A stretch of 64,000 bases of DNA, from sequence record OK254197.1; one strand, 5' to 3'. Below the pieces are notes generated by a model, which was not told where the DNA came from, ran no database searches, and worked only from the letters and a program-made list of their open reading frames with translations. The stretch's first letter is position 1; the number at the start of each line of letters is the position of its first letter. This DNA is from Escherichia phage PNJ1902. The position numbers and the translations under genes were made by a program. Of this stretch, positions 2,818 through 63,508 are shown one piece after another.

Positions 2818-2826
2818 TCTGCCTCC

Positions 2827-3255: not shown

Positions 3256-3257
3256 AT

Positions 3258-5142: not shown

Positions 5143-5151
5143 TCTTGTTCC

Positions 5152-5433: not shown

Positions 5434-5532
5434 AGCTTTCTCCTCTCAAATTTATAAATCTATTATATATAAATTTTTGGCTGAAAGCAAATAAAATAAA
5501 AGCCAGGTCGACTAGCAACCCGGCTGATTAGC

Positions 5533-7407: not shown

Positions 7408-7436
7408 TATACTCTCCTTCTCTAACTAAGACTACT

Positions 7437-7465
7437 ATTATAACTCATTCGAGGGCGGATGTCAA
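7437..7465 (-). promoter_or_regulatory. Consensus sigma70 promoter for nrdD (TTGACA-17-TATAAT on minus strand)
   Basis: Reverse complement reads ttgaca tccgccctcgaatgagt tataat. Confidence 0.6.
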
Positions 7466-7506
7466 CAATATTTTACTATAAAGTTCTGTAACATGATCTG
7501 AGTCAA

Positions 7507-7535
7507 AAAATTTTATTTGCCAATCTCTATTAAAA
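7507..7535 (+). promoter_or_regulatory. sigma70-type promoter (TTGCCA-17-TATAAT)
   Basis: Spacing and hexamers read from sequence. Confidence 0.45.
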
Positions 7536-7657
7536 ATTGTATAATCACGCACTCGTGCACGCGATATAAAATGATTATCTAGTATCACACATCTCACGTT
7601 AAAAGCAAGCAAATTTTTTATTTAAATGCAATATCATAGGCTTATTTAAAATTGTAG

Positions 7658-7686
7658 TTGCTTTTTACTGTATATATTGGTATAAT
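7658..7686 (+). promoter_or_regulatory. sigma70-type promoter (TTGCTT-17-TATAAT) upstream of phoH
   Basis: Hexamers with 17-bp spacer. Confidence 0.55.
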
Positions 7687-7759
7687 ATATTTGTAAGTTG
7701 ATAAACAAGATCTTTTTGTTGATCCTCTGTTAGCGAAGTACACTATAGGAGTGTTATTT

Positions 7760-8512
7760 ATGGGAAAAGCACGTCAAAAAAGAGAGAACCGCAATGGTTC
7801 AAGAAAGCGTGGCAACAAATATGAGAACAACGTAATTCAGGCTGATTTTTCTAATGATTACGCTAATCCAGTTGCTAAATCCCTAGTAGGTAAAAACCGC
7901 GAGCAAAAATCATATATCAATATGATCAAGAACAACACAGTGACTGTGGGTATCGGTGAGCCGGGTACTGGTAAAACCTTTATTCCGTCCGTTCTTGCAG
8001 CTCAGGAACTCGTAGACATTCACTCAGATATTGAGCAAGTGATCCTCGTACGTCCTAATGAACCTCTAGGTAAGTCTCTTGGTATGCTTCCTGGTGATCT
8101 AGCGGAAAAGCTAGAGCCTTGGTTGGAACCAATAGCTGATGGTATGAAATGGGCCATCGGCGATCATGCATATAAGGGATATGTCGAACGTCAGAAAATT
8201 AAATTTTTGGCTATCGAACATGCTCGTGGCAGAACTTTCAACAACTCCTATGTAATTGTCGATGAAGCTCAGAATATTTCCGTTGAGGCAATGATTTGTC
8301 TCCTAACTCGTGTAGGACAAGACTGCCGTTTAATTATCTGCGGAGATATAGCTCAGAAAGACATTAAAGGTGACTCAGGTCTAGCACTCCTTATGGAAGT
8401 CTATGAAAAATACGAAAATGCCCCATTCTCAATGATCGAATTGATTGATAACGTTCGTTCTGCTGAGTCTAAAGCATTCTATGACATTTTTAAAGACATG
8501 GGGAAGGTGTAA
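7760..8512 (+). CDS. phoH: PhoH-like ATPase
   Basis: Walker A GEPGTGKTF, DEAQN Walker B-like; start moved to ATG 7760 after AGGAG. Confidence 0.75.
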   Translation: MGKARQKRENRNGSRKRGNKYENNVIQADFSNDYANPVAKSLVGKNREQKSYINMIKNNTVTVGIGEPGTGKTFIPSVLAAQELVDIHSDIEQVILVRPNEPLGKSLGMLPGDLAEKLEPWLEPIADGMKWAIGDHAYKGYVERQKIKFLAIEHARGRTFNNSYVIVDEAQNISVEAMICLLTRVGQDCRLIICGDIAQKDIKGDSGLALLMEVYEKYENAPFSMIELIDNVRSAESKAFYDIFKDMGKV

Positions 8513-8514
8513 TA

Positions 8515-8756
8515 TGGGAAACGTCGTTCATCTGAGCCGTAAAACTAAAATACATCGTACTTCACTGAGTGCTGCTAATATGATTACACGTAAGGAAGGG
8601 GAAGAAAGTCCTAAGACAACCCTAGCGTGGAAAATTGTAACCTCAAATCCAAATAAACCATTCAATTATAACGAGCTGAGCACCTCCATAGATATTCTAT
8701 TAAAAGAGGCAGCTAGAGCTAAAGTAATTGAACAAGCTAAAAAGCTAGACTGGTAA
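8515..8756 (+). CDS. Hypothetical protein
   Basis: ATG 8515 after GAAGGTG RBS; in-frame part of track ORF 8445..8756. Confidence 0.4.
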
Positions 8757-8763
8757 TATACAG

Positions 8764-8797
8764 GGCCTGGGTATGAAAATACCCGGGCCTTTTCTAT
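8764..8797 (+). terminator. Rho-independent terminator-like hairpin
   Basis: gggcctgggtat...tacccgggcc followed by T-run. Confidence 0.4.
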
Positions 8798-8877
8798 CAG
8801 AAAATTTTATTTGCCTAATGACCGATAATAAAGTAGAATATTCCTTAAATCCTGATAACTATAAAAAGGAAAGCCAA

Positions 8878-11208
8878 ATGAGCCATCGCATTGAAAAAGT
8901 AATTAAACGTGACGGTACTGTAGAAGACTTTGCTCCCGAAAAAATCAATGGTTGGGCAGAGTATGGTTGCAAAACAGTTGATGTAAGTTGGTCAGCCATT
9001 ACTATGGCTGCTCAAAAAACTCTGCCTAAAGGGGTTGTAGATTCCGACACTCTGATGGATGCATTAATTAAAGCTGCTGAAAGTCTTATTAAAGATAATC
9101 CAGCATATGATGTGCCAGCAAAGGAATTACGTCTTGCGCAAATGCGTAAACGCCTTTATGATTCTTTCGAACCACCTTCTCTACGCTTCTTCCATGATCA
9201 CATGGTTAGCGTAGGTGCATGGGAAGACATGAGTGCATGGATTACCGATGAGCAATTTGAAGCTCTGAATCAAGTTATCGACCATGATCGTGATCGTCTT
9301 TTTACTAGTGGTGGACTGAAACAGTTCTTTGATAAGTATTCCCGTCGTAACATAGCCACTGGTGAAATTTATGAAACTCCGCAGTTTGCCTACATGGGTA
9401 TGGCAATGGCGATGTTATCTCAACCTAACTGGACAATTCTAGATGCAATCGACCTCTACAACGCAATGTCACTCCACAAAATCAACGTTCCTACGCCGCC
9501 ACTGGTTGGTCTGCGCTCTAGTGACCGTGGATTTGCTAGTTGCTGTCTCGTGGATTCCACTGACACGTTGGATTCAATCGACACCGCCGAGCACATCGTC
9601 TTCAAAATGGTCGCAGCCAGAGCGGGAATCGGGTATCATCTTGAAAGCCGATCAATTGCTGATCCGGTGCGAAATGGGGCATTCCCGCATTCCGGAAAAC
9701 TGCCATATTATCGACACATTGACCGCTCAGTAAAGGCCAATACTCAGCAAACTCGTGGTGGTTCTGCCACAGTGTCTTATCCGTACTTCGACCCTGAAAT
9801 CATTCAATTGATGCAGGTTAAGCAACAACGTGCTACAGATGAGAATAAAATCGATAAGATGGATTATTCTCTGAGCTTTAACAATCTTTTGTTAAAACGT
9901 TATCTTAAAAACGAAGATATTACGCTAATGTCATACTTCTATGCTCCAGAAGTTCATGAAGCGTTTTATAGTGATGACGAGGCTAAATTTGAAGAAATCT
10001 ACGTGGCAGCGGAGAAACGTGTGGCATCTCTTACAAAGATCGACCACGAAGGAAAAACAGTTCCTGCAGCTCCTAAAGTCTCTGCAAAAGAAATCCTAGA
10101 TACTTGGCTACGTATCCGAATGGAAACAGGACGTATGTATGCTCACCACATTGGGGAATCTAATCGTCACGGTAACTTCCTTGATCCGATCCGTATGACA
10201 AACCTTTGTGTTGAAATTACTCAGCCTACACGCCCGTTCCATCACATTACAGAGCTGTACAAGACAAAAGAGCAGCTTGATCAAATGAAGCCGGAGGATA
10301 TTGGTGAAGTATCTCTGTGTAACTTAGGTGGTGTTGTACTTGGACGCATGGAATCTCTGGCTGAGTGGGAAAAAACTTGCTACATCCTTCTGAAATTCGT
10401 TGATACAATTATTGAAATTCAGGATTATCCGTTCCCAACTATGGAATATACGGCTAAGAAACGTCGTAATGTTGGTATTGGCCTGATGAACGCAGCAGGT
10501 GCAATGGCAGCAGAAGGTCTGGCTTACGAAGGTATTGAAGCTCGTAACTGGATTCACCGTGAGGCTGAAAAACTGTCTTACTTCCTGCATAAAGCCTCTG
10601 TACGCCTAGCTAAAGAACAGGGTGCATGTGAGTGGTTTGATCGTACTAAACCATCTAAAGGAATCCTGGTAATCGACACGTACAAGAAAACTGTTGATGA
10701 ACTGGTATCCGTAGGTCTAGAAATGGATTGGGAGTCTCTGCGTGCAGATATTCTGAAATATGGTATGCGTAACTCTGTTCTGACTGCTCAGATGCCAGGA
10801 GAAAGTTCTTCTGTTCTGTTAGGTGTTACTAACTCTATCGAACCACCTCGTAAGATTGTATCTATCAAGGGTAGTGCAGTAAATAAAGTAATTGCAATTG
10901 CTCCAGGTGCAACCGATTGGGAAACGTTAATGAGCTATAAACTGGCTTATGATGTAGATCGTATCGAGTGGATCAAGTGGGTAGCAACTATGCAGAAATT
11001 CTTCAGTCAGTCTATCAGTACGAATATGTACTATGACTACACCAAGTTTGAGAATGAAATCATTCCTGGCCCAGTAGTAGTTCGTGATTTCATGACTGCT
11101 GTTAAGTATGGATGGAAAACTTGGTATTATGCTAACTTCAATACCGCAAATGGTGGAGGTGCTGGAGAAGAAGCAGCCGGTTGTGCATCCGGTGGTTGTA
11201 CTATTTAA
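8878..11208 (+). CDS. nrdA: Ribonucleoside-diphosphate reductase large subunit (class Ia)
   Basis: ATP-cone N-terminus (IKRDGTVEDF), NLCVEI active-site region, C-terminal Cys pair; start taken at ATG 8878 after AAAGGAAAG. Confidence 0.85.
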   Translation: MSHRIEKVIKRDGTVEDFAPEKINGWAEYGCKTVDVSWSAITMAAQKTLPKGVVDSDTLMDALIKAAESLIKDNPAYDVPAKELRLAQMRKRLYDSFEPPSLRFFHDHMVSVGAWEDMSAWITDEQFEALNQVIDHDRDRLFTSGGLKQFFDKYSRRNIATGEIYETPQFAYMGMAMAMLSQPNWTILDAIDLYNAMSLHKINVPTPPLVGLRSSDRGFASCCLVDSTDTLDSIDTAEHIVFKMVAARAGIGYHLESRSIADPVRNGAFPHSGKLPYYRHIDRSVKANTQQTRGGSATVSYPYFDPEIIQLMQVKQQRATDENKIDKMDYSLSFNNLLLKRYLKNEDITLMSYFYAPEVHEAFYSDDEAKFEEIYVAAEKRVASLTKIDHEGKTVPAAPKVSAKEILDTWLRIRMETGRMYAHHIGESNRHGNFLDPIRMTNLCVEITQPTRPFHHITELYKTKEQLDQMKPEDIGEVSLCNLGGVVLGRMESLAEWEKTCYILLKFVDTIIEIQDYPFPTMEYTAKKRRNVGIGLMNAAGAMAAEGLAYEGIEARNWIHREAEKLSYFLHKASVRLAKEQGACEWFDRTKPSKGILVIDTYKKTVDELVSVGLEMDWESLRADILKYGMRNSVLTAQMPGESSSVLLGVTNSIEPPRKIVSIKGSAVNKVIAIAPGATDWETLMSYKLAYDVDRIEWIKWVATMQKFFSQSISTNMYYDYTKFENEIIPGPVVVRDFMTAVKYGWKTWYYANFNTANGGGAGEEAAGCASGGCTI

Positions 11209-32531: not shown

Positions 32532-32532
32532 T

Positions 32533-50344: not shown

Positions 50345-51082
50345 ATCGGATTTGCACATGTTCTAGGGCAGTTTTTCACCTACTATAAATATCCTAGGCC
50401 GGTTTTCCTATACAGGGCGGTTATGGGGAGGGCGGTTATTTCTAGACAACATTTTTTGAAAACACATTTCTGGATTTTACTGTCGGATTTGCACATTGTG
50501 TTTCTAGAAATTTATGGTCGGATTTGCACAATTGCCTAAGTTTTTAGGAACATATAATCTCCTGAAAATGGCAGCATTATTTCGGGCCGAAGGCCCATGT
50601 TTGCCTGAGTTTTTGGAGCCACAGAAATTTTCACTTGTCAAACTATTTTGCCCCATTTTGCTAATAAAATTTTACTTTATCTCCTCTAATCTCAAATTAA
50701 CCTAAATCTTCTCAACTCTTCCCCAAAATCCCCGCAAATCGGGTGCCCCGCACCAAACATGCGCCCCTCCAGTTTCTCCTCTTATTTTCTCTCGCTCTCT
50801 CATCTTCTCCCCAAACCCACACAATCACACACCCTCCAATCGAAGTCACAAAAATCTTGTCGGATTCGCACATCTTAATCCTAGAAAAACCATGTCGGAT
50901 TTGCACATACCCCACAGGATTCGAACGCAGTTCGTGATTGCTGGAGTTTTTGGGAAAATTCATTGTCGGATTTGCACACTATAAAAATTTTTCGGGTCGG
51001 ATTTGCACACTACCAAAAATTGTCGGATTCGCACATACACGCCCGCACGTAACACCCGTGGAGCAATGTCGGATTTGCACAA
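50345..51082. repeat. Array of at least 9 dispersed direct repeats of a 14-bp motif GTCGGATT(T/C)GCACA (iteron-like)
   Basis: Copies near 50345, 50482, 50518, 50859, 50894, 50965, 50998, 51022, 51068. Confidence 0.8.
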
Positions 51083-51084
51083 AA

Positions 51085-51106
51085 GCGCAGGGCAATTGCC
51101 CTGCGC
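51085..51106. repeat. Perfect 22-bp palindrome gcgcagggcaattgccctgcgc
   Basis: Seen in sequence. Confidence 0.8.
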
Positions 51107-51109
51107 TAA

Positions 51110-51310
51110 AATACGAATGATAATAAGAATCATTCTCATTTAAAAAGCGGAATGAGAATGATAATAATTCGCATTTAGAAAGTGAAATGATAATCATTAT
51201 CATTTAAAAAGCGGAATGATTCTCATTTAAGAAGTGAAACGATTCTCATTTAAGAAGTGAAACGATTCTCATTTAGAAAGTGAAATGCAAATGATAATGA
51301 TTCTCATTTA
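51110..51310. repeat. Tandem and palindromic repeats resembling Fur boxes
   Basis: aatgataatcattatcatt palindrome; three tandem copies of about 22-bp unit gattctcatttaagaagtgaaac. Confidence 0.7.
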
Positions 51311-51339
51311 AGAATGGAAGTGAGAAACACTATTATTTA

Positions 51340-51520
51340 AGTTATCCACAGACTTATCAACAGCACGATTTGACTTGACAAAATTCTAGCCGTTTTGAAG
51401 CGTTATCAACAGACTTATCCACAGCTTATCCTACTGTATAAATATACAGTATTCCTACGCAGCGAATAATTCTAATATACCGCTAAAACGCTCTCAAACG
51501 CATTCTAACGCGTTTAATTT
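51340..51520. repeat. Left arm of imperfect inverted repeat with DnaA-box 9-mers and LexA-box-like palindrome
   Basis: TTATCCACA at 51342 and 51415, TTATCAACA at 51355 and 51403; CTGTATAAATATACAG at 51434-51449. Confidence 0.7.
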
Positions 51521-51641
51521 TGTTGGGGATACTAAAACAAGGGCAAAATTGGAGGAGGCTTGAAAATTAGTTAGCCCGCTAACGATCACACAAGGCGACA
51601 CGTAACACCCTAACCATTAGCAGGCTAACCATCGCGGGCGC

Positions 51642-51662
51642 GGTCAAATGAGAATGATTCTC
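51642..51662. promoter_or_regulatory. Fur-box-like 21-bp palindrome aaatgagaatgattctcattt
   Basis: Seen in sequence. Confidence 0.4.
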
Positions 51663-51707
51663 ATTTGAGAATTGGGGGCACTTCCAGATAGTTGCGCCCC
51701 GTGATTA

Positions 51708-51902
51708 TTAGTCGGGTAGTCGATGCGTGATTTTTTCCTCCTCCCCATAGGAATCTACCAAATACTGATAATAACCATCGTGATCATAAATCACTTTATC
51801 ATAATCGCCACGCTCGACCGCTTGTCGGTTTTCCGGCGTATCGGGCACGTAAAAAATATCAACCATTGTACTAGTTTTGGTTACAACAATTTTATTGCTC
51901 AT
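51708..51902 (-). CDS. Hypothetical small protein
   Basis: ORF track. Confidence 0.4.
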   Translation of the reverse strand: MSNKIVVTKTSTMVDIFYVPDTPENRQAVERGDYDKVIYDHDGYYQYLVDSYGEEEKITHRLPD

Positions 51903-52175
51903 AATAACGCCCTAGTAAATATATTTTTGCCAATAGTGGCGAACGTTATCGCCACCAGCGGAATCATTAGCGGCCTTACTATTACCAACGAAAGTATATA
52001 ATCTCATTAGTATTATTTTCCTTGCATTAATTTATATATAACGAACATCCCGCAAAACTGCCCTAATATAGTGCAGACAACAAGGGATAACACAATATTG
52101 CCGATCATGTTATAAGTAACCATACCAGTAATAAGGGATAGCGCATACCCTAGCAAAGCAATATAAACAGCCATA

Positions 52176-52526
52176 TTATTTACCTATTTTTCGAAACGCT
52201 GTTTCAATACTATCAGCCGTGGATTGAATATATGCGCCTTTCATTATCAGGCGCTCAGTGCATACTTTACGGAAAATATTAATAAAATCATCTTCATTTT
52301 CTGCGATTAATGCCTCACCCATAACCTGAACGTCGCAAGATGCAAAGGTCAAAAATTGAAACGCTAGTTCACGGGCAACGACCGCATTGATTTTATAATG
52401 CGCCTTTCCCTCGTAAATATTAATAACGCCCTTATATGCTGGCGAAAGCTGGTTTAAATAGTTTGCTAACAATGCCGGGCGGCAGTTAGCAACAAAACGA
52501 TTGCCCTCGTAAATGATCATTTGCAT
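52176..52526 (-). CDS. Hypothetical protein
   Basis: ORF track. Confidence 0.45.
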   Translation of the reverse strand: MQMIIYEGNRFVANCRPALLANYLNQLSPAYKGVINIYEGKAHYKINAVVARELAFQFLTFASCDVQVMGEALIAENEDDFINIFRKVCTERLIMKGAYIQSTADSIETAFRKIGK

Positions 52527-52644
52527 AACCTCCCGATCAGATAGCCTGATAAAAGCATAAAGACCCCCAACGAAATGGGATCATTCTTAAATAAGGTGGC
52601 GATAAAACCGCCAGCCATTGCAAGGAGAATAACAATAACGCTTT

Positions 52645-52857
52645 TCATAGTACCCCACGAAACGCAGCGTAAAAGGTGGCAAAATATTTAACCGTTTCAG
52701 TGATCACGTTGCCGCGCTTATCGAATTTCTTTTCAGTAACACGAAAAGCGTTTTTGTTACGTGCTACATATTCGATTTTACAGTCTGGGCGCTCGAACGT
52801 GTTAGCATCCACCAGCTTAAAACCTTTTGAACGTGCAAGAGAAACGTTGCGGATCAT
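52645..52857 (-). CDS. Hypothetical small protein
   Basis: ORF track. Confidence 0.4.
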   Translation of the reverse strand: MIRNVSLARSKGFKLVDANTFERPDCKIEYVARNKNAFRVTEKKFDKRGNVITETVKYFATFYAAFRGVL

Positions 52858-53058
52858 TTTTATTCTCCTTTACCAGTCATGCAGCCCAGCAGATAAGAAA
52901 ATGCAGCGATACCCGCGCCAATAATAACCGCGTGAACGTCGAAAGCTATTGCAAACAAAGATAAAATAGCGCCCAAGATACCCGCCAGAATAGCTCGAAA
53001 AATAACCATATGTAATACTCCCTAGTTAGTGGGGGCGAAAGTAACGCCCCGTTATTAA

Positions 53059-53322
53059 TTACATTAAAATAATTTTTGCCGCTTGTTTTTTGGTACAGTG
53101 TTCCGCCTTCAGGGTATCCAGCAAAAAGCCCGCCGTTTGCTGATCGATTTGATCATTATCATAAAGCGCCTGTATGGTAGTATAAGTTTTAGCGATGCCG
53201 TACTCTTGCACCATTTCCTGAATAATCCAGCGATTTGATACCCAGCCTTTACCAGTGAAAAGATGACTAGCAGAAGAATATGCAACCATTATAAGCCTCC
53301 AAAATTTTGGGAAAATTTTCAA
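53059..53322 (-). CDS. Hypothetical protein
   Basis: ORF track. Confidence 0.4.
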   Translation of the reverse strand: MKIFPKFWRLIMVAYSSASHLFTGKGWVSNRWIIQEMVQEYGIAKTYTTIQALYDNDQIDQQTAGFLLDTLKAEHCTKKQAAKIILM

Positions 53323-53519
53323 CCGTCCTCAAACGGTGTAAAGGCATTATAACAAAAAAGGCCACCATAAAAGGCGACCTTTACAAAACTTTACATTAGA
53401 TTATTTATTACTCGTTTTCGGTGTTATTGGTAAAAGTAGAAATATCGATACCTTTTACCATTTCCAGCATTGCCGCCACCTGGCCGCCGTGTTGGGTCTT
53501 TACTTTAATATTACCCCGC

Positions 53520-53705
53520 AGCGTTTAGCTCGTTAGAAAGCGTTTTAGGCCGCTTAAAATTGATTGCAGTCGTTAACACTACCTTTTTACCCTGTATATT
53601 TATACAGTAGGATAACCTGTGGATAAGTCTGTGTAAAAGTCCCTATATCGCCGCCTATCGTGTCAAGTCAAAAAGTGCTGTGGATAACGTTGTGGATAAC
53701 TTAAA
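53520..53705. repeat. Right arm of inverted repeat with DnaA boxes and LexA-box-like palindrome
   Basis: CTGTATATTTATACAG at 53592-53607; TGTGGATAA copies near 53617, 53681, 53693. Confidence 0.7.
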
Positions 53706-53890
53706 TGATAGTGGTTCTCACTAATTAATTTATGTAGTTATTATATCGTAAAATATAGTTAGTTGCCTAATAGGTTTTTAGAGTGATTATGAGTCAGCTA
53801 ATTAAACCTGAAAAACTCATTAGCTAGTCTGCTAATCATTTTGATATAATATAATAGAGATTAAAGTAATAACATAAGGAAACTATAACA

Positions 53891-54412
53891 ATGGGTAAAT
53901 ATAAAGAAATTAATTATAATGATATAAAAGATCACGTATATTATGATGAATCGTCGCCATCATTTCTACGATGGAAAGTAACGCGGGATAATATTTCAGC
54001 AGGTGATATTGCCGGTTGTATTAATTCCAGTGGTTATTATATCGTAACTATTAATAACGTTAGTTACCGAGTACATCGTATCATATGGGTATTATTTCAT
54101 AAAGAAATAGATAGCAATCTAACAATCGATCATATTGATCGTAACCGCGCTAATAATAACATTAAAAACTTACGCCTTGTTACTCATTCGCAGAATTGTA
54201 GTAACAAGGGTGATAGTTTGCGTGCTAATGGTTTACCTAGAAATATTTCATATCATTCTAATAATCGTGTTGATAGTAACGGGCGTAAATATATGACGGC
54301 TATGTTTCGAGTGCCTAATAGTAACAAGCGTGTTAGTAAGTCTGGTTATGATTTACAAGAGTTATTATTATGGCTTGAAACTAAAAAAGCTGAATTTGGA
54401 ATTGTCAATTAA
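53891..54412 (+). CDS. HNH homing endonuclease
   Basis: IDHIDRNRANNNIKNLRLVTHSQN (HNH_3-type motif); AT-rich relative to neighbours. Confidence 0.65.
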   Translation: MGKYKEINYNDIKDHVYYDESSPSFLRWKVTRDNISAGDIAGCINSSGYYIVTINNVSYRVHRIIWVLFHKEIDSNLTIDHIDRNRANNNIKNLRLVTHSQNCSNKGDSLRANGLPRNISYHSNNRVDSNGRKYMTAMFRVPNSNKRVSKSGYDLQELLLWLETKKAEFGIVN

Positions 54413-54925
54413 TTAATTTAATAAATTAAGTCATTTGATCTTGATTTTTAAAAGTCAAGACCTTTTCTAACTTTATTTCAATTTTGCTTTTGTTAAATAT
54501 TTGTTAAGTCCAATTTAAGGCATCTAGAACGCATTCTAAGCGCCTTAAAAACTAACCTAAGCAAGTGCATTGCTTATACGCCTTTATCGCCATCAGGAGG
54601 ATTCTAGATTTTGTCAATACCCCCAAAGCAAATATAAATGAAAAAATTACTTGCCTATCTGTCATGTTTTGTGGTATTCGCGCGCCCGTTTCTTTTAATT
54701 TTAATGCGCCGCGCCCAGGTCGCCGCACGGTGTCCGGTGGCGTTTGTCTTTACATTTCTTTACAAAAAGAAGGTTGCGCCTTTTTCGTTGTTTGTTATTA
54801 TTTATCTCGTAGGGCGGCAATGACGAACTACACGGCGGGAAGTTTACCGCCGCGCTCTTTAAAAATTGGGTATATCTTAAAGCCTATCGGCGGTAAACTT
54901 ATTTACATTATAAGGAATCGACGAT

Positions 54926-55084
54926 ATGACAACAATATTTAATGATCATCCAGCTACTCACGACACGATCGAAAAGATCGAGCAATGGGTAAAAAAGGCA
55001 AATGAATACTATGCTAATCATTCAGAAGCGGTAATAATCTGCAATGATGGCAAAGGTTTATACGCTTTGGAGGATCTCAAATAA
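54926..55084 (+). CDS. Hypothetical 52-aa protein
   Basis: ATG after AGGAATCGACGATATG; below ORF-track cutoff. Confidence 0.3.
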   Translation: MTTIFNDHPATHDTIEKIEQWVKKANEYYANHSEAVIICNDGKGLYALEDLK

Positions 55085-55284
55085 TGCAAACTTTATTGAT
55101 CACTGGTAAACCTAGCAAGGCACTGGATACCAGAACAAAAAATTTGTTGACAGTAGCGCAAAGATCGGTAAAATATCGATTTAAGCAGTACAAGAAAGGT
55201 CGCCAGCAGGGTCTGGAAATGATCTGGCGAAATATTATGATTGACCTGAAAGAAAATCATAAAAAATCTCAAAAAACTGTTTGA
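55084..55284 (+). CDS. Hypothetical small basic protein
   Basis: ORF track. Confidence 0.4.
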   Translation: MQTLLITGKPSKALDTRTKNLLTVAQRSVKYRFKQYKKGRQQGLEMIWRNIMIDLKENHKKSQKTV

Positions 55285-55514
55285 CAACCTAGCCGATAGG
55301 TTTTAAGATGTACCCAGTTCGATGAGAGCGATAACTTGATAAAATTTGACGGTCGGTGCTTACCATAATGCATCCCGCCCCCTAACTGGGATATAGCGGC
55401 CTGCGTGGAGTTCTTTAAATTGATTTAACTGGCGAGCGGATTGTTACTTATTACCTGCTACTATTTTCTAGCAGGTAATGCGAAACAATCCCCTAAATAA
55501 CTGGAGTTTATACT

Positions 55515-55766
55515 ATGCAAAACGTTACTAATGCGCCGAAAATTGGTCAATCCGTTTTTATCCCTTTCGTTACCAAAACGGATGAATTAACCGGAAAAGC
55601 CGAACGTATTAAAGGTGCGGCGCTTATGCCGTTTGATACAATCGATGCGGTATACGCTGAAAATGAACGCAGTAACAACGGAAAAACCGTTTATAACGTT
55701 CGCGTTAAATCCGGCGACGTTGTAAAGGTTGTTCAACGCAACGAAAAATGGGAAGCCGTTTTATAA
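55515..55766 (+). CDS. Hypothetical protein (pre-early-like module)
   Basis: ORF track; CTGGAG RBS; terminator hairpin downstream. Confidence 0.5.
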   Translation: MQNVTNAPKIGQSVFIPFVTKTDELTGKAERIKGAALMPFDTIDAVYAENERSNNGKTVYNVRVKSGDVVKVVQRNEKWEAVL

Positions 55767-55774
55767 ATTAGTGT

Positions 55775-55812
55775 TAACTTTATATGCCCCAGTAGTTCGG
55801 GGCATATAACGA
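55775..55812 (+). terminator. Rho-independent terminator
   Basis: atatgccccagtagttcggggcatat. Confidence 0.55.
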
Positions 55813-55863
55813 TTAACATTAGTTAATCTTATCCCTTAAATTAAATTAATTGGAGTTTTTACC

Positions 55864-56271
55864 ATGACTAACGCAAAAGCCGCAAAATTTTCTTGGAACG
55901 AAGAAAACACCCAAAAAGCTGTTACCATGTATCAGCAGTTAATCAATGAAAACGGTTTAGATTTCGCAAATAGCGACGGCCTGAAAGAGATTGCGAAAGC
56001 AGTTGGCGCGGCTTCTCCCGTGTCAGTTCGCTCAAAATTGACCAGCGCGAAAGCATATCAAAAAAGCGATAAGCCGCGCAAAGTTGGCGGCGGTAGTTCA
56101 ATCCGTAAAGCTCACTATGTACGAGTAATTGCAAAACACGCTATCGATTCCGGCATTATCAAGGACGCCGATGATCTGGCAAGCCTTGAAAGCGCAAAAT
56201 TAGAAACGTTGGACGCCGTGGCGCAACTGTTAGGCGTTGCCGATGAGGTAAAGCAGGCCGCAGGTGAATAA
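55864..56271 (+). CDS. Hypothetical protein (pre-early-like module)
   Basis: ORF track; TGGAG RBS. Confidence 0.5.
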   Translation: MTNAKAAKFSWNEENTQKAVTMYQQLINENGLDFANSDGLKEIAKAVGAASPVSVRSKLTSAKAYQKSDKPRKVGGGSSIRKAHYVRVIAKHAIDSGIIKDADDLASLESAKLETLDAVAQLLGVADEVKQAAGE

Positions 56272-56276
56272 ATTTA

Positions 56277-56310
56277 AATAGCGGGGGATTATTCCCCCGC
56301 TGTAATTCCC
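56277..56310 (+). terminator. Rho-independent terminator
   Basis: agcgggggattattcccccgct. Confidence 0.55.
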
Positions 56311-56330
56311 CTTTAATTGGAGTTATTAAA

Positions 56331-56528
56331 ATGATCTTTTACCCCGCTGAATCGCTCATTCTAGGCTTATTTATTATGGCGGCCTCATTATTGTTCGCTT
56401 ATTTTCAAAATGATTTAGATTCGTATTATTTTAAACGCAAATCTAAGTTAGCAAAGCGGTTAGGTCTGATTTGTTTTATTGCTGCCATTGTTTGTGGTGT
56501 TAGTTCTAGCCTGATGCCTATTAGTTGA
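56331..56528 (+). CDS. Small membrane protein
   Basis: ORF track; two hydrophobic segments. Confidence 0.45.
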   Translation: MIFYPAESLILGLFIMAASLLFAYFQNDLDSYYFKRKSKLAKRLGLICFIAAIVCGVSSSLMPIS

Positions 56529-56624
56529 ATGTTGCAAATTATAACGCCTATTATTGGAGGCGTTATATTTGGCAATATTGCCAATAATAAACGTTTTTTA
56601 ATCCCTTTAATGGAGTTTATTACT

Positions 56625-58289
56625 ATGATTTTTTCCGCAGAAAAACAAACCGTTATCCTGAAACTAGCCGCTGACTTTAATTTCTATGGTAAACGTCTGC
56701 GCGCTACTAAATTGGAGGTCTGCGACGATATTTCTAAAGCGGTTTATGATACTGCAAAGCATTCAACCGCTATCTGCGACTGGTTAGAAGCAAATAAACC
56801 AGCGAAACCGAAAACAGCGAAAGCGGTGAAAGCCATTAAAAACGACGAGCGCCCTGAAGCGGCTGGAATTATTTCCAGCACGGTGGAACAGTGGGAAGTA
56901 AAACAAGGCAAACGCTTTATTATTACGTCGATTCAGAATAATACTTTCCCGCATAAAAACTTTTTAGCCTCACTTGAACAATATGCTAAATTTATCGGCG
57001 CTGATTTGCTTGTTTCTAAGTATATTTATAATAAAAACGGTTTTCAGAATGGAGAAGGCGCAGACGGTGTAAAATATGCTTCCGCGTTTGATAAATATAT
57101 TTGCAGCAAAAACGTGTTTTTAAATAATCGCCGTTTTGCTTTCATGGCTGAAATTAATGTTTTGCCCACCGCGGATTATCCGCTATCTGGATTTGCAGAA
57201 ACTGCAACCGCGCTTAATCTGGAAGGTCTGGCAATTGGTCACGCTAAAATCACCGCCGAAAGCGTCCCAGCTCTCAAAGGTGAAGTAGTACGCCGCATGT
57301 ATTCAACCGGAACGGCAACGCTTAAAAACTACATTCAGCAAAAAGCAGGGCAAAAAGCGGAAGCATTACATAATTACGGCGCGCTTATTGTCGAGTTTGA
57401 CGAAGACGGTGAATTTTTTGTTCGCCAGCTTGAAACGATGGACGAAAGCGGCATGTTTTATGATCTTAATGTTTGCGCTACTCCCGCCGGATGTTTTGAA
57501 ACGTCGGGGCATGTTTTAGGCTTGCAGTATGGCGACGTGCACGCTGAAAAATTAGATGATGAGTGCGCCGCAGCGTCATGGGCTGGCGACAATAGTTTGC
57601 TCGATATTCTCAAACCAAAATATCAGTTTATCCATGACGTGCATGATTTTACATCACGCAATCATCACAACCGCGCGTCTGGTGTATTTCTAGCGAAACA
57701 GTATGCAGCCGGACGTGATAAAGTTCTGGATGATCTCATCGACACCGGGCGAGTGCTGGAATCAATGGAGCGCGATTTTAGTCAAACGATCATTGTCGAA
57801 TCGAATCACGATTTGGCGTTATCTCGTTGGCTTGATGATCGCAATGCTAACATTAAAGACGATCCAGCCAACGCCGAACTGTACCACCGCCTTAATGCCG
57901 CTATCTACGCAGCTATTGCAAAGCAGGATGATACTTTCAACGTGTTAGATTATGCGTTGCGTACGGTTGCAGGTTGCGAGTTTAACGCGATTTTCCTAAC
58001 GACTGATCAATCTTTCAAGATTGCAGGCATTGAATGCGGCGTACACGGTCACAACGGCATTAACGGCAGCCGTGGCAATCCTAAGCAGTTTAAGAAATTG
58101 GGCAAGTTAAACACGGGGCACACCCACACCGCCAGCATATACGGCGGCGTATATACGGCGGGCGTTGCTGGTTCCCTAGATATGGGCTATAACGTTGGCG
58201 CGTCAAGCTGGACGCAAACGCATTTAATTACCTATGCAAACGGTCAGCGCACTTTGATTGACTTTAAAAACGGTAAATTCTTTGCGTAA
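56625..58289 (+). CDS. A1: A1-like pre-early protein with calcineurin-like metallophosphatase/nuclease domain
   Basis: GDVHAE, HD, SNHD, HGHNG, GHTHT motifs; about 554 aa from ATG 56625 after GGAG; followed by A2-like and dmp-like genes. Confidence 0.55.
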   Translation: MIFSAEKQTVILKLAADFNFYGKRLRATKLEVCDDISKAVYDTAKHSTAICDWLEANKPAKPKTAKAVKAIKNDERPEAAGIISSTVEQWEVKQGKRFIITSIQNNTFPHKNFLASLEQYAKFIGADLLVSKYIYNKNGFQNGEGADGVKYASAFDKYICSKNVFLNNRRFAFMAEINVLPTADYPLSGFAETATALNLEGLAIGHAKITAESVPALKGEVVRRMYSTGTATLKNYIQQKAGQKAEALHNYGALIVEFDEDGEFFVRQLETMDESGMFYDLNVCATPAGCFETSGHVLGLQYGDVHAEKLDDECAAASWAGDNSLLDILKPKYQFIHDVHDFTSRNHHNRASGVFLAKQYAAGRDKVLDDLIDTGRVLESMERDFSQTIIVESNHDLALSRWLDDRNANIKDDPANAELYHRLNAAIYAAIAKQDDTFNVLDYALRTVAGCEFNAIFLTTDQSFKIAGIECGVHGHNGINGSRGNPKQFKKLGKLNTGHTHTASIYGGVYTAGVAGSLDMGYNVGASSWTQTHLITYANGQRTLIDFKNGKFFA

Positions 58290-58291
58290 TT

Positions 58292-58335
58292 AAATTATTC
58301 CCTAGCGGCTTGAAATATAGCCGCTATTATAGGAG
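58292..58335 (+). terminator. Terminator-like hairpin
   Basis: tagcggcttgaaatatagccgcta. Confidence 0.45.
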
Positions 58336-58342
58336 TCAAAAA

Positions 58343-58600
58343 ATGAAAGTTATTCTACCCAAAACACTAGACGAAAAAGCGTTTATTTCCCCCGATGAAA
58401 TGGAATCCGATAAAGTTTACAGCTTCGGGCCTATCCTAGCCGCCAAAACTAATACTGATGGAATTATTACAGTCGATTATCGTGATAATGATATTGTTCC
58501 TTTTGACGATGATGACGCTTTTTATGAGTGGTTAAGCGATAATAATTTACCCGTAAGTGGTGAATTAACGCCGTATCAGATGCAAATCATTATCAAATAA
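58343..58600 (+). CDS. Hypothetical acidic protein
   Basis: ATG 58343 after AGGAGT; track ORF 58310 start lies in the hairpin. Confidence 0.45.
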   Translation: MKVILPKTLDEKAFISPDEMESDKVYSFGPILAAKTNTDGIITVDYRDNDIVPFDDDDAFYEWLSDNNLPVSGELTPYQMQIIIK

Positions 58601-58638
58601 TTTAAATCCCCTATTAAACTAATTGGAGTTTTATAACT

Positions 58639-59031
58639 ATGAAAAAGCAAAATATTCCATTCGATCGCGCTCAATCTTCCATTGTTCTGGTTTATTCTAA
58701 TGGTGAACGTTACCACGTCGAGGCGGGGCACGTTATTGATGACCTATTAGATTTCAATGACGCATTGCAGGTTACAACATTTGCATATATGCAAGGCAAA
58801 CTAACAAGCCATATTAAAGCAAAAGGTGTTTATGTTGACACGATGAAACAAGAAACGATTATCATCGACGCAGTAAAATCCGGTCTAGCCTTTGCAGTTG
58901 TCGCGCCTTGTCCGGCTTGTCTTGATGATCAACTAATGAGCGCGAAGGTATTTACATGCGCGGGCATTCGTTCCCATGTATCCGGCGAAGATATTAGTTA
59001 TATCGCTGATGCGTTGGCGTATGGTCTTTGA
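58639..59031 (+). CDS. A2: A2-like pre-early protein, putative
   Basis: 130 aa, position between A1-like and dmp-like genes; assignment by synteny and size only. Confidence 0.35.
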   Translation: MKKQNIPFDRAQSSIVLVYSNGERYHVEAGHVIDDLLDFNDALQVTTFAYMQGKLTSHIKAKGVYVDTMKQETIIIDAVKSGLAFAVVAPCPACLDDQLMSAKVFTCAGIRSHVSGEDISYIADALAYGL

Positions 59032-59039
59032 TAGTTGAT

Positions 59040-59070
59040 TTATTATTGCCCGCTTATAAATAGCGGGCAA
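59040..59070 (+). terminator. Terminator-like hairpin
   Basis: ttgcccgctataaatagcgggcaa. Confidence 0.5.
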
Positions 59071-59111
59071 TGCTGGATAAACTACATCCCTTTAATGGAG
59101 AACGTAACAAA

Positions 59112-59846
59112 ATGAATCAAGTTAAAACGAATATTACCCGTAATTTCCCGCATATTTCCCGCGTCATGATTTGGGATCTTGATGGCACTATCGTTAATTC
59201 ATTCCATCGTGTCGCGCCTTGCTTTGATAGCGATGGGAATTTAGATTTAAATAAGTATAAAAATGAAGCGTGTAAGCATGATTTAATAATGCAAGATACT
59301 TTATTGCCTTTGGTGGAATATATGCGCCAATGCATGAATGACGCAAATACTTTAAACATTATTTGCACCGCTCGACTGATGAGCAAATCAGATTATTACT
59401 TCCTACGCAAACAAGGTTTGCGCGGTCGTGGTGATAGTAATATCCGTGTATTTTCCCGCGATACACTGCATAAATATTTTGAAGCTGATAAGGTTAGCGA
59501 GATATACCACAGCAAGGACGCAGTTTATAAAAGTTATTATTTTGAGCTATTCAAGCAACTATATCCGAACGCTGATTTTACAATGATTGATGATCATAAA
59601 GGTGTATTATCAGCGGCGGCATCATACGGATTTAAAACGCTGGACGCGCAAGCCGTTAATGATATTCTATCAATCGGCGTGGCATTGATAGGCGGAACCT
59701 TTATTGATGAATCTCTCGATGATGATAATGATTATCAGTTCCTAGCTGATCGCTTAAAGTTATGTTGGGAAAGTATGACAGAAGAAGAACGCGCAGAATA
59801 TAGTTGCAGCCCGCAACAATATATCGAGAAATTAAAAGTTGCGTAA
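59112..59846 (+). CDS. dmp: 5'-deoxyribonucleotidase (HAD-type), Dmp-like
   Basis: IWDLDGTIVNS (HAD motif I DxDGT); 244 aa from ATG 59112 after GGAGAA. Confidence 0.55.
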   Translation: MNQVKTNITRNFPHISRVMIWDLDGTIVNSFHRVAPCFDSDGNLDLNKYKNEACKHDLIMQDTLLPLVEYMRQCMNDANTLNIICTARLMSKSDYYFLRKQGLRGRGDSNIRVFSRDTLHKYFEADKVSEIYHSKDAVYKSYYFELFKQLYPNADFTMIDDHKGVLSAAASYGFKTLDAQAVNDILSIGVALIGGTFIDESLDDDNDYQFLADRLKLCWESMTEEERAEYSCSPQQYIEKLKVA

Positions 59847-59857
59847 TAATTAAAGTT

Positions 59858-59900
59858 GAGATAGTTTCACCTTGCAATTAAAATGGTTGCAGGGTGAAAC
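59858..59900 (+). terminator. Rho-independent terminator hairpin
   Basis: gtttcaccttgcaattaaaatggttgcagggtgaaac. Confidence 0.55.
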
Positions 59901-60021
59901 AGTTAGCATGGTAATAGTAACGGGGGTGGCGGTTAGCAGACTAAGTATTCTCCCCCTAGCCACTGCACCCACCCACGCGTACGTAATCCAAAGAATTTGA
60001 CAAAAGTCATTTTAGTGCTAA

Positions 60022-60558
60022 TTAACTGTTTAACTGAACAACATCTGGTATATTCCCTTTGAATGCCTCTTGTACTGCAAAGCTGCCATGAAATTTCTTT
60101 CTTAGTAAATTCGCATAATTTACTGCGTCTTCCAATCTGTCATAGGAAAAATACTTAGTAGTACCTTTTATAAGTCCATGCTTATCATGTAACCTTACCA
60201 TCCATTTCTGGAGTCCCTTATGCCACGTAACATTTAGGTAGCCTGAGGATGTTTTTGAGGTTCTACCATTATGATTATTTTCCGTAATTGTAGCTTCTCG
60301 CAGATTTGACCACCTATTATTTAGCTTATTTCTATCTATATGGTCTACACATTCCCCCGGCCACCTATTTTCCATAATAACAAAAGCTACTTGATGTGCA
60401 TAAGCTTTAAATCCTCGATACTTAAGCTGCCTATACCCCCTATTTAAAGTACCTGCTTCTTTATCCTTACGATTGCCACTTTTCCAGGTGAAAACTCCAG
60501 TTTCGGGATTATAAGCAAATGCTTCTTGTATATCCTGTATACTTAAATTATTCTTCAT
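60022..60558 (-). CDS. HNH homing endonuclease
   Basis: VDHIDRNKLNNRWSNLREAT..EN motif. Confidence 0.65.
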   Translation of the reverse strand: MKNNLSIQDIQEAFAYNPETGVFTWKSGNRKDKEAGTLNRGYRQLKYRGFKAYAHQVAFVIMENRWPGECVDHIDRNKLNNRWSNLREATITENNHNGRTSKTSSGYLNVTWHKGLQKWMVRLHDKHGLIKGTTKYFSYDRLEDAVNYANLLRKKFHGSFAVQEAFKGNIPDVVQLNS

Positions 60559-61368: not shown

Positions 61369-61635
61369 TTACAGGTAGTTAGATTGCTCTAGTTTAAATT
61401 TACAATCACCATATTTAAGGTCAAACTGACTGAGATCCCACCATCCAAACTTAGTACGGAGCTGTACTACTGGAAAGCGATCTCCCTTAATACGAACTTT
61501 TTGAATCTTGAGACCGTAATGTTCTTCTCCCGCACCACCAAAAGATTTTACAAATCCAGTACAAAATGGTTTGGGAGCAGGTACACAACCAGATAACATA
61601 ACTGCGGCAACTAGTGCAATCACAAACTTTTTCAT
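61369..61635 (-). CDS. llp: Lipoprotein Llp-like (lytic-conversion / receptor-blocking lipoprotein), putative
   Basis: Signal peptide with lipobox LSGC; small; divergently adjacent to receptor-binding protein gene. Confidence 0.5.
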   Translation of the reverse strand: MKKFVIALVAAVMLSGCVPAPKPFCTGFVKSFGGAGEEHYGLKIQKVRIKGDRFPVVQLRTKFGWWDLSQFDLKYGDCKFKLEQSNYL

Positions 61636-61720
61636 ATTTATCTCTCCATTTCTAATTTATGAATCTATTATAGCAAAATAGAGGGATGAAAGCAAATACA
61701 TTTTTATAATAGGAGATTAT

Positions 61721-63508
61721 ATGGGGTTTTTCGCTGGAAAATATAGCGATGGTAAGACCGTACTATCTTTAAATACTGAATCTGGTGGTGACATTAATCG
61801 TCACTATAGTCCAAATGCCAATAGTATTTTTCATAGTGATATGCCATTTGTCCTAGTTGACGGTACTTATGAAGCTGGGTTAGGTAATGCCGGAAATGGG
61901 TTTTTTGTATGTCAGATGCCCTCTGACATAATAAATATTAAATCCAACGACCCAGGTAGAGTTATACTAACTGCTATTGAGATTAATGGTACTCATAGGG
62001 CTTTTCTTAATGGTACTCAGTCTCAAGTTGGTCAATTTACTGCATTTTTTGAAGATCCGCCTATTGGTAGGGCAGGTGCAGAAGTAGGTCTTACGTCAGC
62101 TTTTGCATCAGGTAATAGTTTAGCACATGGCACCTATATTTATAACTCTGGTTTAGGCCATGAAGAATCAATTGCTAGACAGGGTACAGGTGGTACCATA
62201 TCTCAAGCCTCCGGGTTTAATTTATATAGGCCTGGTGGTGCATATGCTGGTGAGGCTATTGGAAGGGCGTGGACTCTAGCAGGATTTCCAGCAGGAGCGT
62301 CTACAGTACCTATAGACGGTGGTAATGCTGACTACTGGCACCCTAATTGGCAAGCTCCTATAGGAGCCGCCTATAGAGGACATAATTGGTTCTACGTTTG
62401 TAACTCTAATATACGAGGTTACGTAGGTAAAAAGGGCACAGTACCAGCTAATGTTAACTTATTATACCAATCTCCTACGTACCCTGATAAGGTTTATATA
62501 TGTAAAGGTTCAACGTCTAATCTAGCAGCACAGGCCGCTAAGAAAGTGTATGTGCAGGATTGGTATAACATAACTCCTACTAAGGTTATTTGGTATGTAC
62601 TTAATCTAAGGTACTCTAATGGTAATATGGGCGTATCTGGTAATCCATTTACTGGGTCAGATATACTTATAACTCCATCTAATTTTACTATAAAAGGGGT
62701 TAGTTTACCAAATACTGGATATAAGTTTATTAACCAAAATGCTTTTGGTAACTTAGGTTATAGGCCAGATATGGAATACGTCGGAAATAACGCAGCGTAT
62801 ACTGGAGCCTTTGGAGATACCACTGCGCGTTGTGAAATTGTAGGATCTAGTAATGGATCTTTATGGTCTCCTGTAGATTATGGAGGAGCCAAGTCTCAAA
62901 TCAGTATTTACAAATTCGGAGCAGGTAAGCAATGGTACGTAAACTCAAATAATAACACTATTGGTAATGAGCATGGAGCTGTGTGGAGTCCTAGTACTGT
63001 ACCATTAAGACTATTTCCAAATAATGTTGCTAGCACCTACGTTGGTGATGACATAACCCCCGCATATCCTGGAGCAGGCAACTACTATAGAGCTTTGGCC
63101 ACCGTAGGATTAGGATTGCCTAACGCTAACGCAACGGTAATATTAACTACGGAAGTTATTATGGGTAATATTAATACGGCTGGAGGAGCCATACGCACAT
63201 ACGGTGGTACTGCTTGGCAAGTACAAGGAAGAAGGCAGCATAGTTACACGGAAGGTGATGGAATATTCCATCAAATATTAACCTTACCTCCTGGATACTT
63301 AGTCCCATATCACTCCACTACTGCATACAGTTATACTCAAACTTGGGCAAGTAGACCTGATGAGTTAACATTTAGAAGAAACGGATATATTTATACTATT
63401 AAAAATCTAGGAAATGGTAATGCTGAATTGGGCGTAATTATTCACGCTGATGAGGCTGCAGCTATTTTCCTACCGAGATTAAGAGTAACAGTTCAACGCC
63501 TTACCTAA
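61721..63508 (+). CDS. Receptor-binding tail protein (pb5/Oad-like), putative
   Basis: 595 aa Gly/Asn/Thr-rich protein divergent from the Llp-like gene; assignment by synteny and size. Confidence 0.45.

Follow-up and report, generated by a model that had tools for sequence, protein, structure and literature searches.

Identity and limits of the module

In T5-like phages, 8% of the genome, the first-step-transfer (FST) DNA, enters the cell ahead of the rest. Transfer of the DNA in two steps, with pre-early timing of expression, is known for phages T5 and BF23, and the T5 annotation (NC_005859) assigns positions 1-10219 to the left terminal repeat, i.e. the FST DNA, with dmp at its very end, followed by A1, A2 and the injection stop signal. 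The stretch analysed here, called the window below, comprises 64,000 nucleotides of Escherichia phage PNJ1902 (OK254197.1), in which an initial annotation made from the sequence alone had reported a GC-richer pre-early-like module at 51700-60000. Indeed, a T5-type pre-early (first-step-transfer) module is present, with orthologs of A1, A2 and dmp and a repeat-rich injection-stop region, and homology indicates that positions 50616..59969 almost certainly represent a single assembly-collapsed copy of the long terminal repeat (FST DNA) of a T5-like phage. The initial observation is partly confirmed and its interpretation partly supported; the module is already known and well described, and the present work amounts to a routine annotation of a T5-like FST module in which the assignment of A2 is corrected.

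The block is collinear with the 10.2-kb terminal repeat of T5 but inverted, according to tblastn and blastn comparisons with NC_005859. T5 positions 2..10400 are covered by blastn, T5 position 2 corresponding to window position 59968 and T5 position 10400 to window position 50435. The T5 FST genes share 65-98% amino acid identity with the open reading frames (ORFs) of the window in gene-by-gene tblastn, with conserved order, and nearly all genes of the block are 85-98% identical to catalogued genes of T5 or its relatives. When window positions 51000-61500 were compared by megablast with 50,697 phage records, all 554 matching records were T5-like relatives; the best match is Salmonella phage SP01 (93% over 90% of the query), followed by vB_Sen_H9, S124 and HildyBeyeler. 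The phage is assigned to the genus Tequintavirus, with Salmonella phage SP01 as its closest relative.

The inner boundary of the block is given by the end of the T5 repeat (10219), which maps to window position 50616, exactly where the SP01 record begins. The outer boundary lies at about 59969, as strong similarity to T5 sets in only where the T5 right repeat starts; the terminus of Sw2 defined by PhageTerm maps to window position ~59967, and position 59969 is probably the physical end of the virion DNA. Past this position are found an HNH gene, small membrane ORFs, an llp/Cor lipoprotein gene (61369..61635) and a receptor-binding protein gene (61721..63508). These genes sit just inside the right repeat in T5, and the two repeat copies therefore appear to have been collapsed in the assembly. 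The HNH endonuclease gene (60022..60558, minus strand) lies directly outside the putative junction between repeat and unique DNA, a slot that holds a different HNH gene in SP01 and none in T5; this variation is consistent with turnover of homing endonucleases at the repeat boundary.

The T5 repeat (NC_005859 1..10219; AY587007 1..10139) shares with the block the injection-stop-signal (iss) repeats, the DnaA-box inverted repeat, two divergent operons, promoter equivalents and the same ends, as well as the genes dmp, 002, A1, 005, A2, 007, hdi, 009, hegG, 012, 013, 014, 015 and 017. The block differs from that of T5 by several changes: an acidic ORF of 85 aa stands in place of T5.003, to which it is unrelated, and a membrane ORF of 53 aa in place of T5.016; T5.011 has been lost with its promoter; 43-aa and 52-aa ORFs are added; and hegG is only 65% identical. 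Phages SP01 (NC_047859), vB_Sen_H9, S124, ABTNLsp4, HildyBeyeler and Spc35 share 89-94% nucleotide identity over 85-93% of window positions 51000-61500. Like the block, the SP01 group has lost 011 and possesses ORFs of 53 and 43 aa together with the same hegG allele, whereas the 85-aa and 52-aa ORFs are absent from SP01, in which another HNH gene lies immediately beyond the repeat. In the FST modules of Epseptimavirus (Salmonella phages Sw2 and S116), the order and the core genes are the same and the slot of the 85-aa ORF is filled by a homolog with 54-55% identity, but 011 is retained, the 005 homolog is only 36% identical, and the hegG allele is missing, as are the 43-aa, 53-aa and 52-aa ORFs.

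Several points weigh against a simple equation of this block with the T5 repeat. The physical termini and the duplication of the block in the virion are deduced by homology alone, and every gene function discussed here is carried over from experiments on T5. Moreover, the 85-, 52-, 43- and 53-aa ORFs are without T5 counterpart, T5.011 is missing, and the module thus differs from the T5 one. Every piece of this mosaic variant is nevertheless present in other phages in GenBank, and orthology, synteny and the anatomy of the repeat are direct observations of the present analysis.

If the module works as in T5, the dmp-proximal end (~59969) would enter the cell first and transfer would halt at the injection-stop repeats (50346-51543). 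Host sigma-70 RNA polymerase would transcribe two divergent pre-early operons from strong promoters, namely the equivalents of P-H22 and T5P1 (55138-55335) on the plus strand and of T5P5 (53272-53358) on the minus strand. A1 would destroy host DNA and shut off host expression, and the released deoxynucleoside monophosphates would be dephosphorylated by Dmp. Accessory proteins would act on the host: hdi would block FtsZ, the 015 homolog would nick at abasic sites generated by Ung, the 014 homolog would act against bNACHT immunity, and several small membrane proteins would act on the envelope.

Core pre-early genes

The 554-aa protein (56625..58289, plus strand) had been described initially as A1-like with phosphoesterase motifs, and this identification is upheld: it is a metallophosphoesterase-fold protein sharing 93% identity with T5 A1 over its full length. 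According to a 2026 preprint (10.64898/2026.04.02.716235), T5 A1 is both necessary and sufficient for the degradation of host DNA in vivo; it is also required for second-step transfer. The residues of five metallophosphoesterase-type motifs, namely G303-D304-x-H306, H337-D338-x-x-D341, S393-N394-H395, H474-G475 and H499-x-H501, do not vary among 54 homologs, which extend down to 41% identity, and H476 is nearly invariant; the motifs were assigned by eye, and motifs II and III are variant forms. This conservation agrees with the role in host DNA degradation that the preprint reports from work in vivo; the nuclease activity of A1 itself is putative.

A beta-alpha-beta-alpha-beta sandwich is observed in the fold of A1. 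With the support of the structural model, A1 can be regarded as a divergent member of the calcineurin-like metallophosphoesterase superfamily; A1 gave no sequence match in Pfam (even at E ≤ 10), NCBIfam or the PDB, and none in the PDB with a 54-sequence profile. Its closest known counterparts are calcineurin-like nucleases, namely the PolD DP1 proofreading exonuclease and SbcD/Mre11, but Foldseek returns no match at E ≤ 1e-3, and A1 has its own N-terminal region of ~290 residues; its motif II is H-D-x-x-D, whereas that of calcineurin-like nucleases is G-D-x-x-D. A tblastn search with A1 matched 1134 phage records, including Caulobacter phiCbK-like, Rhizobium, Flavobacterium and Cellulophaga phages, whose homologs share 30-38% identity over >80% of the protein, so that A1-like proteins also exist outside the Demerecviridae.

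A2 (135 aa) is encoded at 55864..56271 on the plus strand, upstream of A1, and shares 98% identity with T5 A2, an essential DNA-binding protein on which second-step transfer depends; no significant sequence match was obtained for A2 in Pfam, NCBIfam or the PDB. In the initial annotation this ORF was listed among the unknown ones, and a 130-aa protein located between A1 and Dmp was called A2-like. This assignment was rejected, as T5 A2 matches only 55864..56271 and the 130-aa ORF (58639..59031, plus strand; phrog_4576) is a homolog of T5.002 (92%), the deletion mutant of which is viable in T5. The proposed order A1, A2-like, Dmp has to be corrected accordingly, the true order being A2, 005, A1, (003 slot), 002, dmp.

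The 244-aa protein (59112..59846, plus strand), for which similarity to Dmp had been predicted, is indeed the deoxynucleoside-5'-monophosphatase, with 96% identity to T5 Dmp. As in T5, dmp is located at the genome-end side of the block, 123 nt from the presumed terminus. Residues D22, D24 and T26 (D-x-D-x-T), T86, K140, D160 and D161 are invariant in 26 homologs and appear to agree with the four HAD motifs, motifs II-IV being putatively placed by order and spacing. HAD profile matches are marginal (Pfam HAD_2, E = 0.14; PDB HAD hydrolases, E = 0.03-0.09) and cover motif I only, NCBIfam gave nothing significant for Dmp either, and homologs of Dmp carry the precomputed family PF26880.

Base composition and codon usage

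The description of the module as GC-richer holds relative to the 10 kb just upstream (35.7%), and a contrast is seen for A1 (44.9%) and A2 (47.1%), but it does not hold relative to the whole window: the GC content of 51700-60000 is 39.8% vs 39.05% for the window, and 39.5% of 8.3-kb segments are at least as GC-rich, so that the module is not a GC-rich island. The step visible at ~50-52 kb arises because the preceding 10 kb are unusually AT-rich. The shift in codon usage that had been noticed together with it is real. Indeed, the GC fraction at third codon positions (GC3) is 0.391 in 17 FST ORFs vs 0.330 in 42 other long ORFs (Mann-Whitney p = 2e-5), and the FST and other ORFs differ in their fractions of GCG (0.31 vs 0.09), CGC (0.47 vs 0.11), GGC (0.40 vs 0.12), ACG (0.28 vs 0.09) and AGA (0.03 vs 0.21).

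Codon fractions of FST ORFs correlate with those of E. coli, represented by 42 E. coli K-12 genes, with r = 0.74, compared with r = 0.56 for the other phage ORFs. By a log-odds score, phage-like values are obtained for all 44 other ORFs, for the variable cassettes and for both HNH genes, and host-like values for A1, A2 and the 007, 012, 014 and 017 homologs. The genome encodes 21 phage tRNA genes at 21043-32781, including a tRNA-Arg(TCT) that reads AGA, in DNA that enters only in the second step. Host-like codons and the avoidance of AGA may be explained because pre-early genes would be translated before the phage tRNA genes arrive, i.e. by the host tRNA pool, a reading to which we give about an even chance. 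Klebsiella phage IME260, whose A1 is 73% identical, agrees in direction but more weakly, which constitutes a partial replication of the codon shift: in FST genes vs the rest, CGC is 0.42 vs 0.24, GGC 0.49 vs 0.31, CTA 0.09 vs 0.19 and ATA 0.03 vs 0.12, and ACG is higher in FST. Two findings tell against the tRNA-timing explanation, which is weaker than the identification of the module: IME260 shows no significant difference for AGA (p = 0.1) and none in GC3, and in the window the FST genes depart from host usage in their codons for Leu and Val (CTG 0.17 vs 0.57 in E. coli). A by-product of this analysis is that the pre-early genes have distinct host-like codons, with AGA, CTA and ATA avoided, a point on pre-early codon usage and tRNAs that was not found in the literature searched.

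Two other explanations of the composition have to be weighed against translation by the host tRNA pool. The shift could mark a horizontally acquired foreign island, derived from the host or from another phage, as the block resembles E. coli in its codon usage more than the remaining genome does and the GC content of A1 and A2 is 45-47% vs 39% for the window. However, the block is found in the same position and order in every T5-like phage examined, its overall GC content equals the genome average, and the variable cassettes (53 aa, 52 aa, 85 aa and HNH), presumably the latest to be exchanged, are phage-like and not host-like in their codons. A foreign origin is therefore very improbable, and the foreign GC island was rejected on account of the ordinary GC content and of the phage-like codons of the exchanged cassettes. 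Short motifs are also depleted in the block, which might reflect selection against restriction sites in FST DNA that is exposed before an anti-restriction protein is made; an example is CAGAG, which we take to be the Salmonella StyLTI site. CAGAG/CTCTG occurs 0 times vs 14.9 expected, Dcm sites 2 times vs 11.1 and the BREX site GGTAAG once vs 6.3, and the restriction sensitivity of Tequintaviruses correlates with sites in FST DNA. Yet the CAGAG-free gap (48599-61921) extends ~2 kb beyond the FST block on each side, and the 4-mer AGAG/CTCT is itself depleted 4-fold (17 vs 72.7), as are GAAG, AAGA, TAGA and AGGA, which fits a by-product of codon usage; the absence of classic 6-bp sites is uninformative because only 0-1.4 are expected. 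Such selection is unlikely, and avoidance of CAGAG, Dcm and BREX sites was rejected as a specific signal in favour of a general depletion of the AGAG/GAAG type tied to codon usage. The absence of CAGAG/CTCTG across 13.3 kb (48599-61921), vs a median spacing of 324 nt elsewhere, is probably compositional.

Small genes of the two operons

The initial annotation had listed the small ORFs as unknown. All of the listed ORFs are present where it placed them, but most are conserved and systematically studied T5 genes; four small ORFs of the block (85, 52, 43 and 53 aa) are absent from T5. In total, 13 ORFs are 65-98% identical to numbered T5 genes, and all small ORFs except the 53-aa one belong to existing PHROG families. 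In 2021, thirteen T5 pre-early/early genes were expressed one by one, and 008, 011 and 015 were toxic (PMC8201957). All 17 T5 genes were studied in 2026, thirteen of them being dispensable, and 003, 009, 016 and hegG were reported in <15% of Demerecviridae genomes (10.64898/2026.04.02.716235). Altogether, 15 of the 17 T5 genes were analysed by reverse genetics in the studies of 2021-2026.

The minus-strand operon includes a homolog of T5.012 (53059..53289; 76 aa, 93% over 76 aa; phrog_5145), the end at 53322 given initially being an upstream TTG start of this gene. This gene is followed by a homolog of T5.013 (52860..53009; 49 aa, predicted membrane protein, 65%; phrog_5607), the T5 protein having two annotated transmembrane domains and being lytic when expressed alone (10.64898/2026.04.02.716235), and by a basic homolog of T5.014 (52645..52857; 70 aa), 94% identical to AAX11952.1 (AY587007 ORF015). 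Between the 014 and 015 homologs lies a 43-aa predicted membrane ORF (52517..52648; phrog_19184) that is absent from T5; it is present in SP01 (95%) and DT57C (73%) but not in T5, Sw2 or S116. The T5.015 homolog (52176..52520; 114 aa) is 90% identical to its T5 counterpart, an Ung-dependent nickase of abasic (AP) sites (PMC8201957; 10.64898/2026.04.02.716235), and PDB searches with the 014 and 015 homologs gave no significant match. In place of T5.016 is found a 53-aa ORF (52013..52174) that is absent from T5 and predicted from hydropathy to be a membrane protein; it has no PHROG match and occurs in 39 phage records with 81-98% identity, and a T5.016 remnant of 19 aa remains at 51911-51967. 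Also on this strand is an acidic homolog of T5.017 (51708..51902; 64 aa, isoelectric point (pI) 4.6, 86%; phrog_6973).

Upstream of this operon, a remnant of T5.011 is present at 53411..53479 (minus strand; tblastn 75% over 24 aa). The deletion of T5.011, located within 53323-53890, leaves its last 24 codons and a terminator hairpin, and the same deletion is seen in SP01. No match to the 011 promoter or to T5P4 was found in the window; this promoter, T5P4, is deleted with the rest of 011. In T5, 011 is toxic in E. coli, and it is present in >75% of Tequintavirus genomes.

On the plus strand, a hegG-like HNH homing endonuclease is encoded at 53891..54412 (Pfam HNH_3, E = 1.9e-15), which is 65% identical to T5 hegG and 100% identical to its SP01 homolog. 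Next come a 40-aa homolog of T5.009 (54820..54942; 97% over 29 aa) and an acidic 52-aa ORF (54926..55084; phrog_21018), which corresponds to an insertion of ~140 bp vs T5 and SP01 (gap 54949-55086) and is found in 47 phage records. The following gene, hdi (T5.008; 55084..55284; 66 aa, 85%; Pfam DUF7416), is the homolog of a host division inhibitor targeting FtsZ (10.64898/2026.04.02.716235). Further along are the T5.007 homolog (55515..55766; 83 aa, 93% to AAX11945.1; Pfam DUF7177, E = 1e-42) and the T5.005 homolog (56331..56528; 65 aa, 92%; phrog_4820), a predicted membrane protein for which two transmembrane domains are annotated in T5.

Relation to host defence

Escape mutants of T5 from bNACHT01, a bacterial defence of the NLR-like kind, carry mutations in 'orf008' (AAX11945.1) and 'orf015' (AAX11952.1); orf015 inhibits several bNACHT systems, and orf008 is toxic when co-expressed with bNACHT proteins (10.1101/2022.07.19.500537). 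Once the numbering of AY587007 is resolved, AAX11945.1 is the 83-aa T5.007 and AAX11952.1 the 70-aa T5.014. The corresponding ORFs of the window are 93% and 94% identical to these proteins, and two of the candidate ORFs therefore already have a published defence-related phenotype; by orthology, the 007 and 014 homologs of the window would have the corresponding bNACHT-related activities. This cross-reference resolves a numbering trap, as 'orf008' and 'orf015' of the bNACHT study are T5.007 and T5.014, and not hdi and the Ung-dependent nickase. A related discrepancy is seen in RefSeq, which places the label 'endonuclease nicking abasic sites generated by host Ung' on the T5.014 homologs (T5, SP01 and Sw2), whereas the Ung nickase is T5.015 in the primary paper and the 2026 preprint; the label on T5.014 is probably an off-by-one propagation. 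The coordinates concerned are 8086-8644 in NC_005859, 8007-8565 in AY587007, and 52645..52857 and 52176..52520 in the window.

The slot between A1 and the 002 homolog holds T5.003 in T5, is empty in SP01 and DT57C, and is occupied here by the 85-aa ORF (58343..58600, plus strand; phrog_8297), which encodes the most acidic protein of the block (pI 4.05, net charge -10.5). This protein gives no alignment with T5.003 and is unrelated to it. The ORF is present in 182 phage records, including Epseptimaviruses (~55%), and not in T5, SP01 or DT57C; the protein is thus absent from T5 and has apparently never been studied experimentally. Its predicted secondary structure comprises four strands and one helix. 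The structural model reaches a pLDDT of 62 from a 7-sequence alignment, and Foldseek returned only generic beta-meander/WD40-blade hits at E ~ 1, with no fold match; a small beta-barrel is possible. An exhaustive HMMER search gave 12 clusters, and a match to a 1267-aa repeat protein (P0182) was discarded as an artefact of repeated weak matches. In its core (FGPILAAKTNTDGIITVDYRDND), the 85-aa protein is similar to the unit repeated in a 924-aa protein with Tudor-type domains (P0187), a short match to be taken as a lead only.

The initial annotation had proposed the small ORFs as new host-takeover or anti-defence genes. That some uncharacterised ORF, i.e. the 85-, 52-, 43- or 53-aa ORF or the 002, 005, 012 or 017 homolog, inhibits a defence system is conceivable but rather doubtful. 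Tequintaviruses do withstand restriction of types I, II and III, except when sites are present in FST DNA, CRISPR targeting follows the same FST-dependent pattern, T5.014, an FST protein, already inhibits bNACHT immunity, and the very acidic 85-aa protein lies in a slot that is differently occupied among phages. However, the idea is not new, since it has already been published for T5: an FST gene was proposed to confer insensitivity of second-step DNA to restriction and CRISPR, with T5.007 as a named candidate, and a restriction-insensitivity factor hidden among FST genes is a reasonable speculation already in print. The 85-aa ORF is absent from the restriction-insensitive phages T5 and DT57C and present in Epseptimavirus, reported to be more restriction-sensitive; as T5 and DT57C resist restriction without this ORF, its product is not a general insensitivity factor. 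In addition, its model is of low confidence and without fold match, and T5 deletions of 002, 005 or 007 have little phenotype on the laboratory host. In a matrix of T5, SP01, DT57C, Sw2 and S116, none of the window ORFs is present in the restriction-insensitive Tequintaviruses but absent from Epseptimaviruses, and strong divergence between the two genera is limited to the 005 homolog (36% identity). The 85-aa protein is the most reasonable accessory candidate among the ORFs of the block; it is nonetheless improbable that its slot is an exchangeable cassette and that the protein acts in the pre-early phase as a novel inhibitor directed at a host nuclease or a defence protein, perhaps by mimicking DNA or by binding as a small beta-barrel. 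For the block as a T5-type FST module, the window adds no leverage on the insensitivity of second-step DNA, the sparing of phage DNA by A1 or the roles of the small membrane proteins, and such questions on T5 pre-early functions are better addressed in T5 itself.

Non-coding regions

The iss repeat region (50346..51543) comprises the repeat families D1-D7 and is 85% identical to T5 9317-10400. It contains nine copies of TCGGATTTGCACA, a ATTCTCATTTAA-type array at 51109-51320 and a homolog of the T5 major nick site at 51065-51103, which is 100% identical over 39 nt. A 131-nt inverted repeat, I1, has its left arm at 51319..51449 and its right arm at 53592-53722 (80% complementary); its arms match the T5 arms at 6098-6228 and 9411-9541, and it brackets the minus-strand operon as in T5. 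It carries DnaA-box-like TTATCCACA motifs, the DnaA boxes of T5 having been described previously (10.1101/866236).

Fur-box-like sequences (consensus GATAATGATAATCATTATC, ≤3 mismatches) were also observed, with 5 matches at 3 loci vs 0.06 expected, namely 51119-51137 and 51183-51201 in the iss array and a palindromic one at 59718-59742 inside dmp; the preprint on the T5 iss makes no mention of them. The Rfam search returned only a sub-threshold PrrF match at 51078-51214 in the iss repeats (38 bits vs a gathering score of 90), which is taken as a chance match and probably reflects repeats that carry Fur-box-like sequences.

Promoter equivalents identified by mapping of the T5 promoters share 89-98% identity with T5. 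On the plus strand, they include the equivalents of P-H22/T5P2 (55138-55199), located inside hdi, of T5P1 (55270-55335) and of T5P3 (53808-53896), just upstream of the hegG-like gene; on the minus strand, the T5P5 equivalent (53272-53358) is 98% identical to AY587007 T5P5. The strongest sigma-70-like site of the scan (55147-55174; 11 of 12 consensus positions) lies within the P-H22 equivalent. A terminator-like hairpin with a T-run, left over from the deleted gene 011, precedes the T5P5 equivalent (53357-53382, minus strand).

The initial annotation had mentioned GC-rich terminator hairpins. Stable GC-rich hairpins are indeed found between most plus-strand genes (-16 to -28 kcal/mol), but the term terminator is unverified, as the T-run is mostly absent. 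A terminator scan gave 15 sites vs 11.3 +/- 3.7 expected, i.e. no enrichment, and the equivalents of two of the hairpins are annotated in T5 as 'palindromes' and not as terminators (AY587007). A terminal hairpin is predicted by folding at 59864-59900; 59864..59969 matches T5 2..105, of which T5 69-105 is annotated as a putative terminator (AY587007).

Finally, a translation-initiation box consisting of TAATTGGAGTT, 5-9 nt and ATG is found upstream of 007, A2, 005, A1 and 002 (and dmp); the variant preceding 007 is TAACTGGAGTT, and A1 and dmp are preceded by TAATGGAG. The plus-strand sites are located at 55497-55518 (007), 55846-55867 (A2), 56313-56334 (005), 56604-56627 (A1) and 58613-58641 (002), and the conserved box supports the start codons of these genes.

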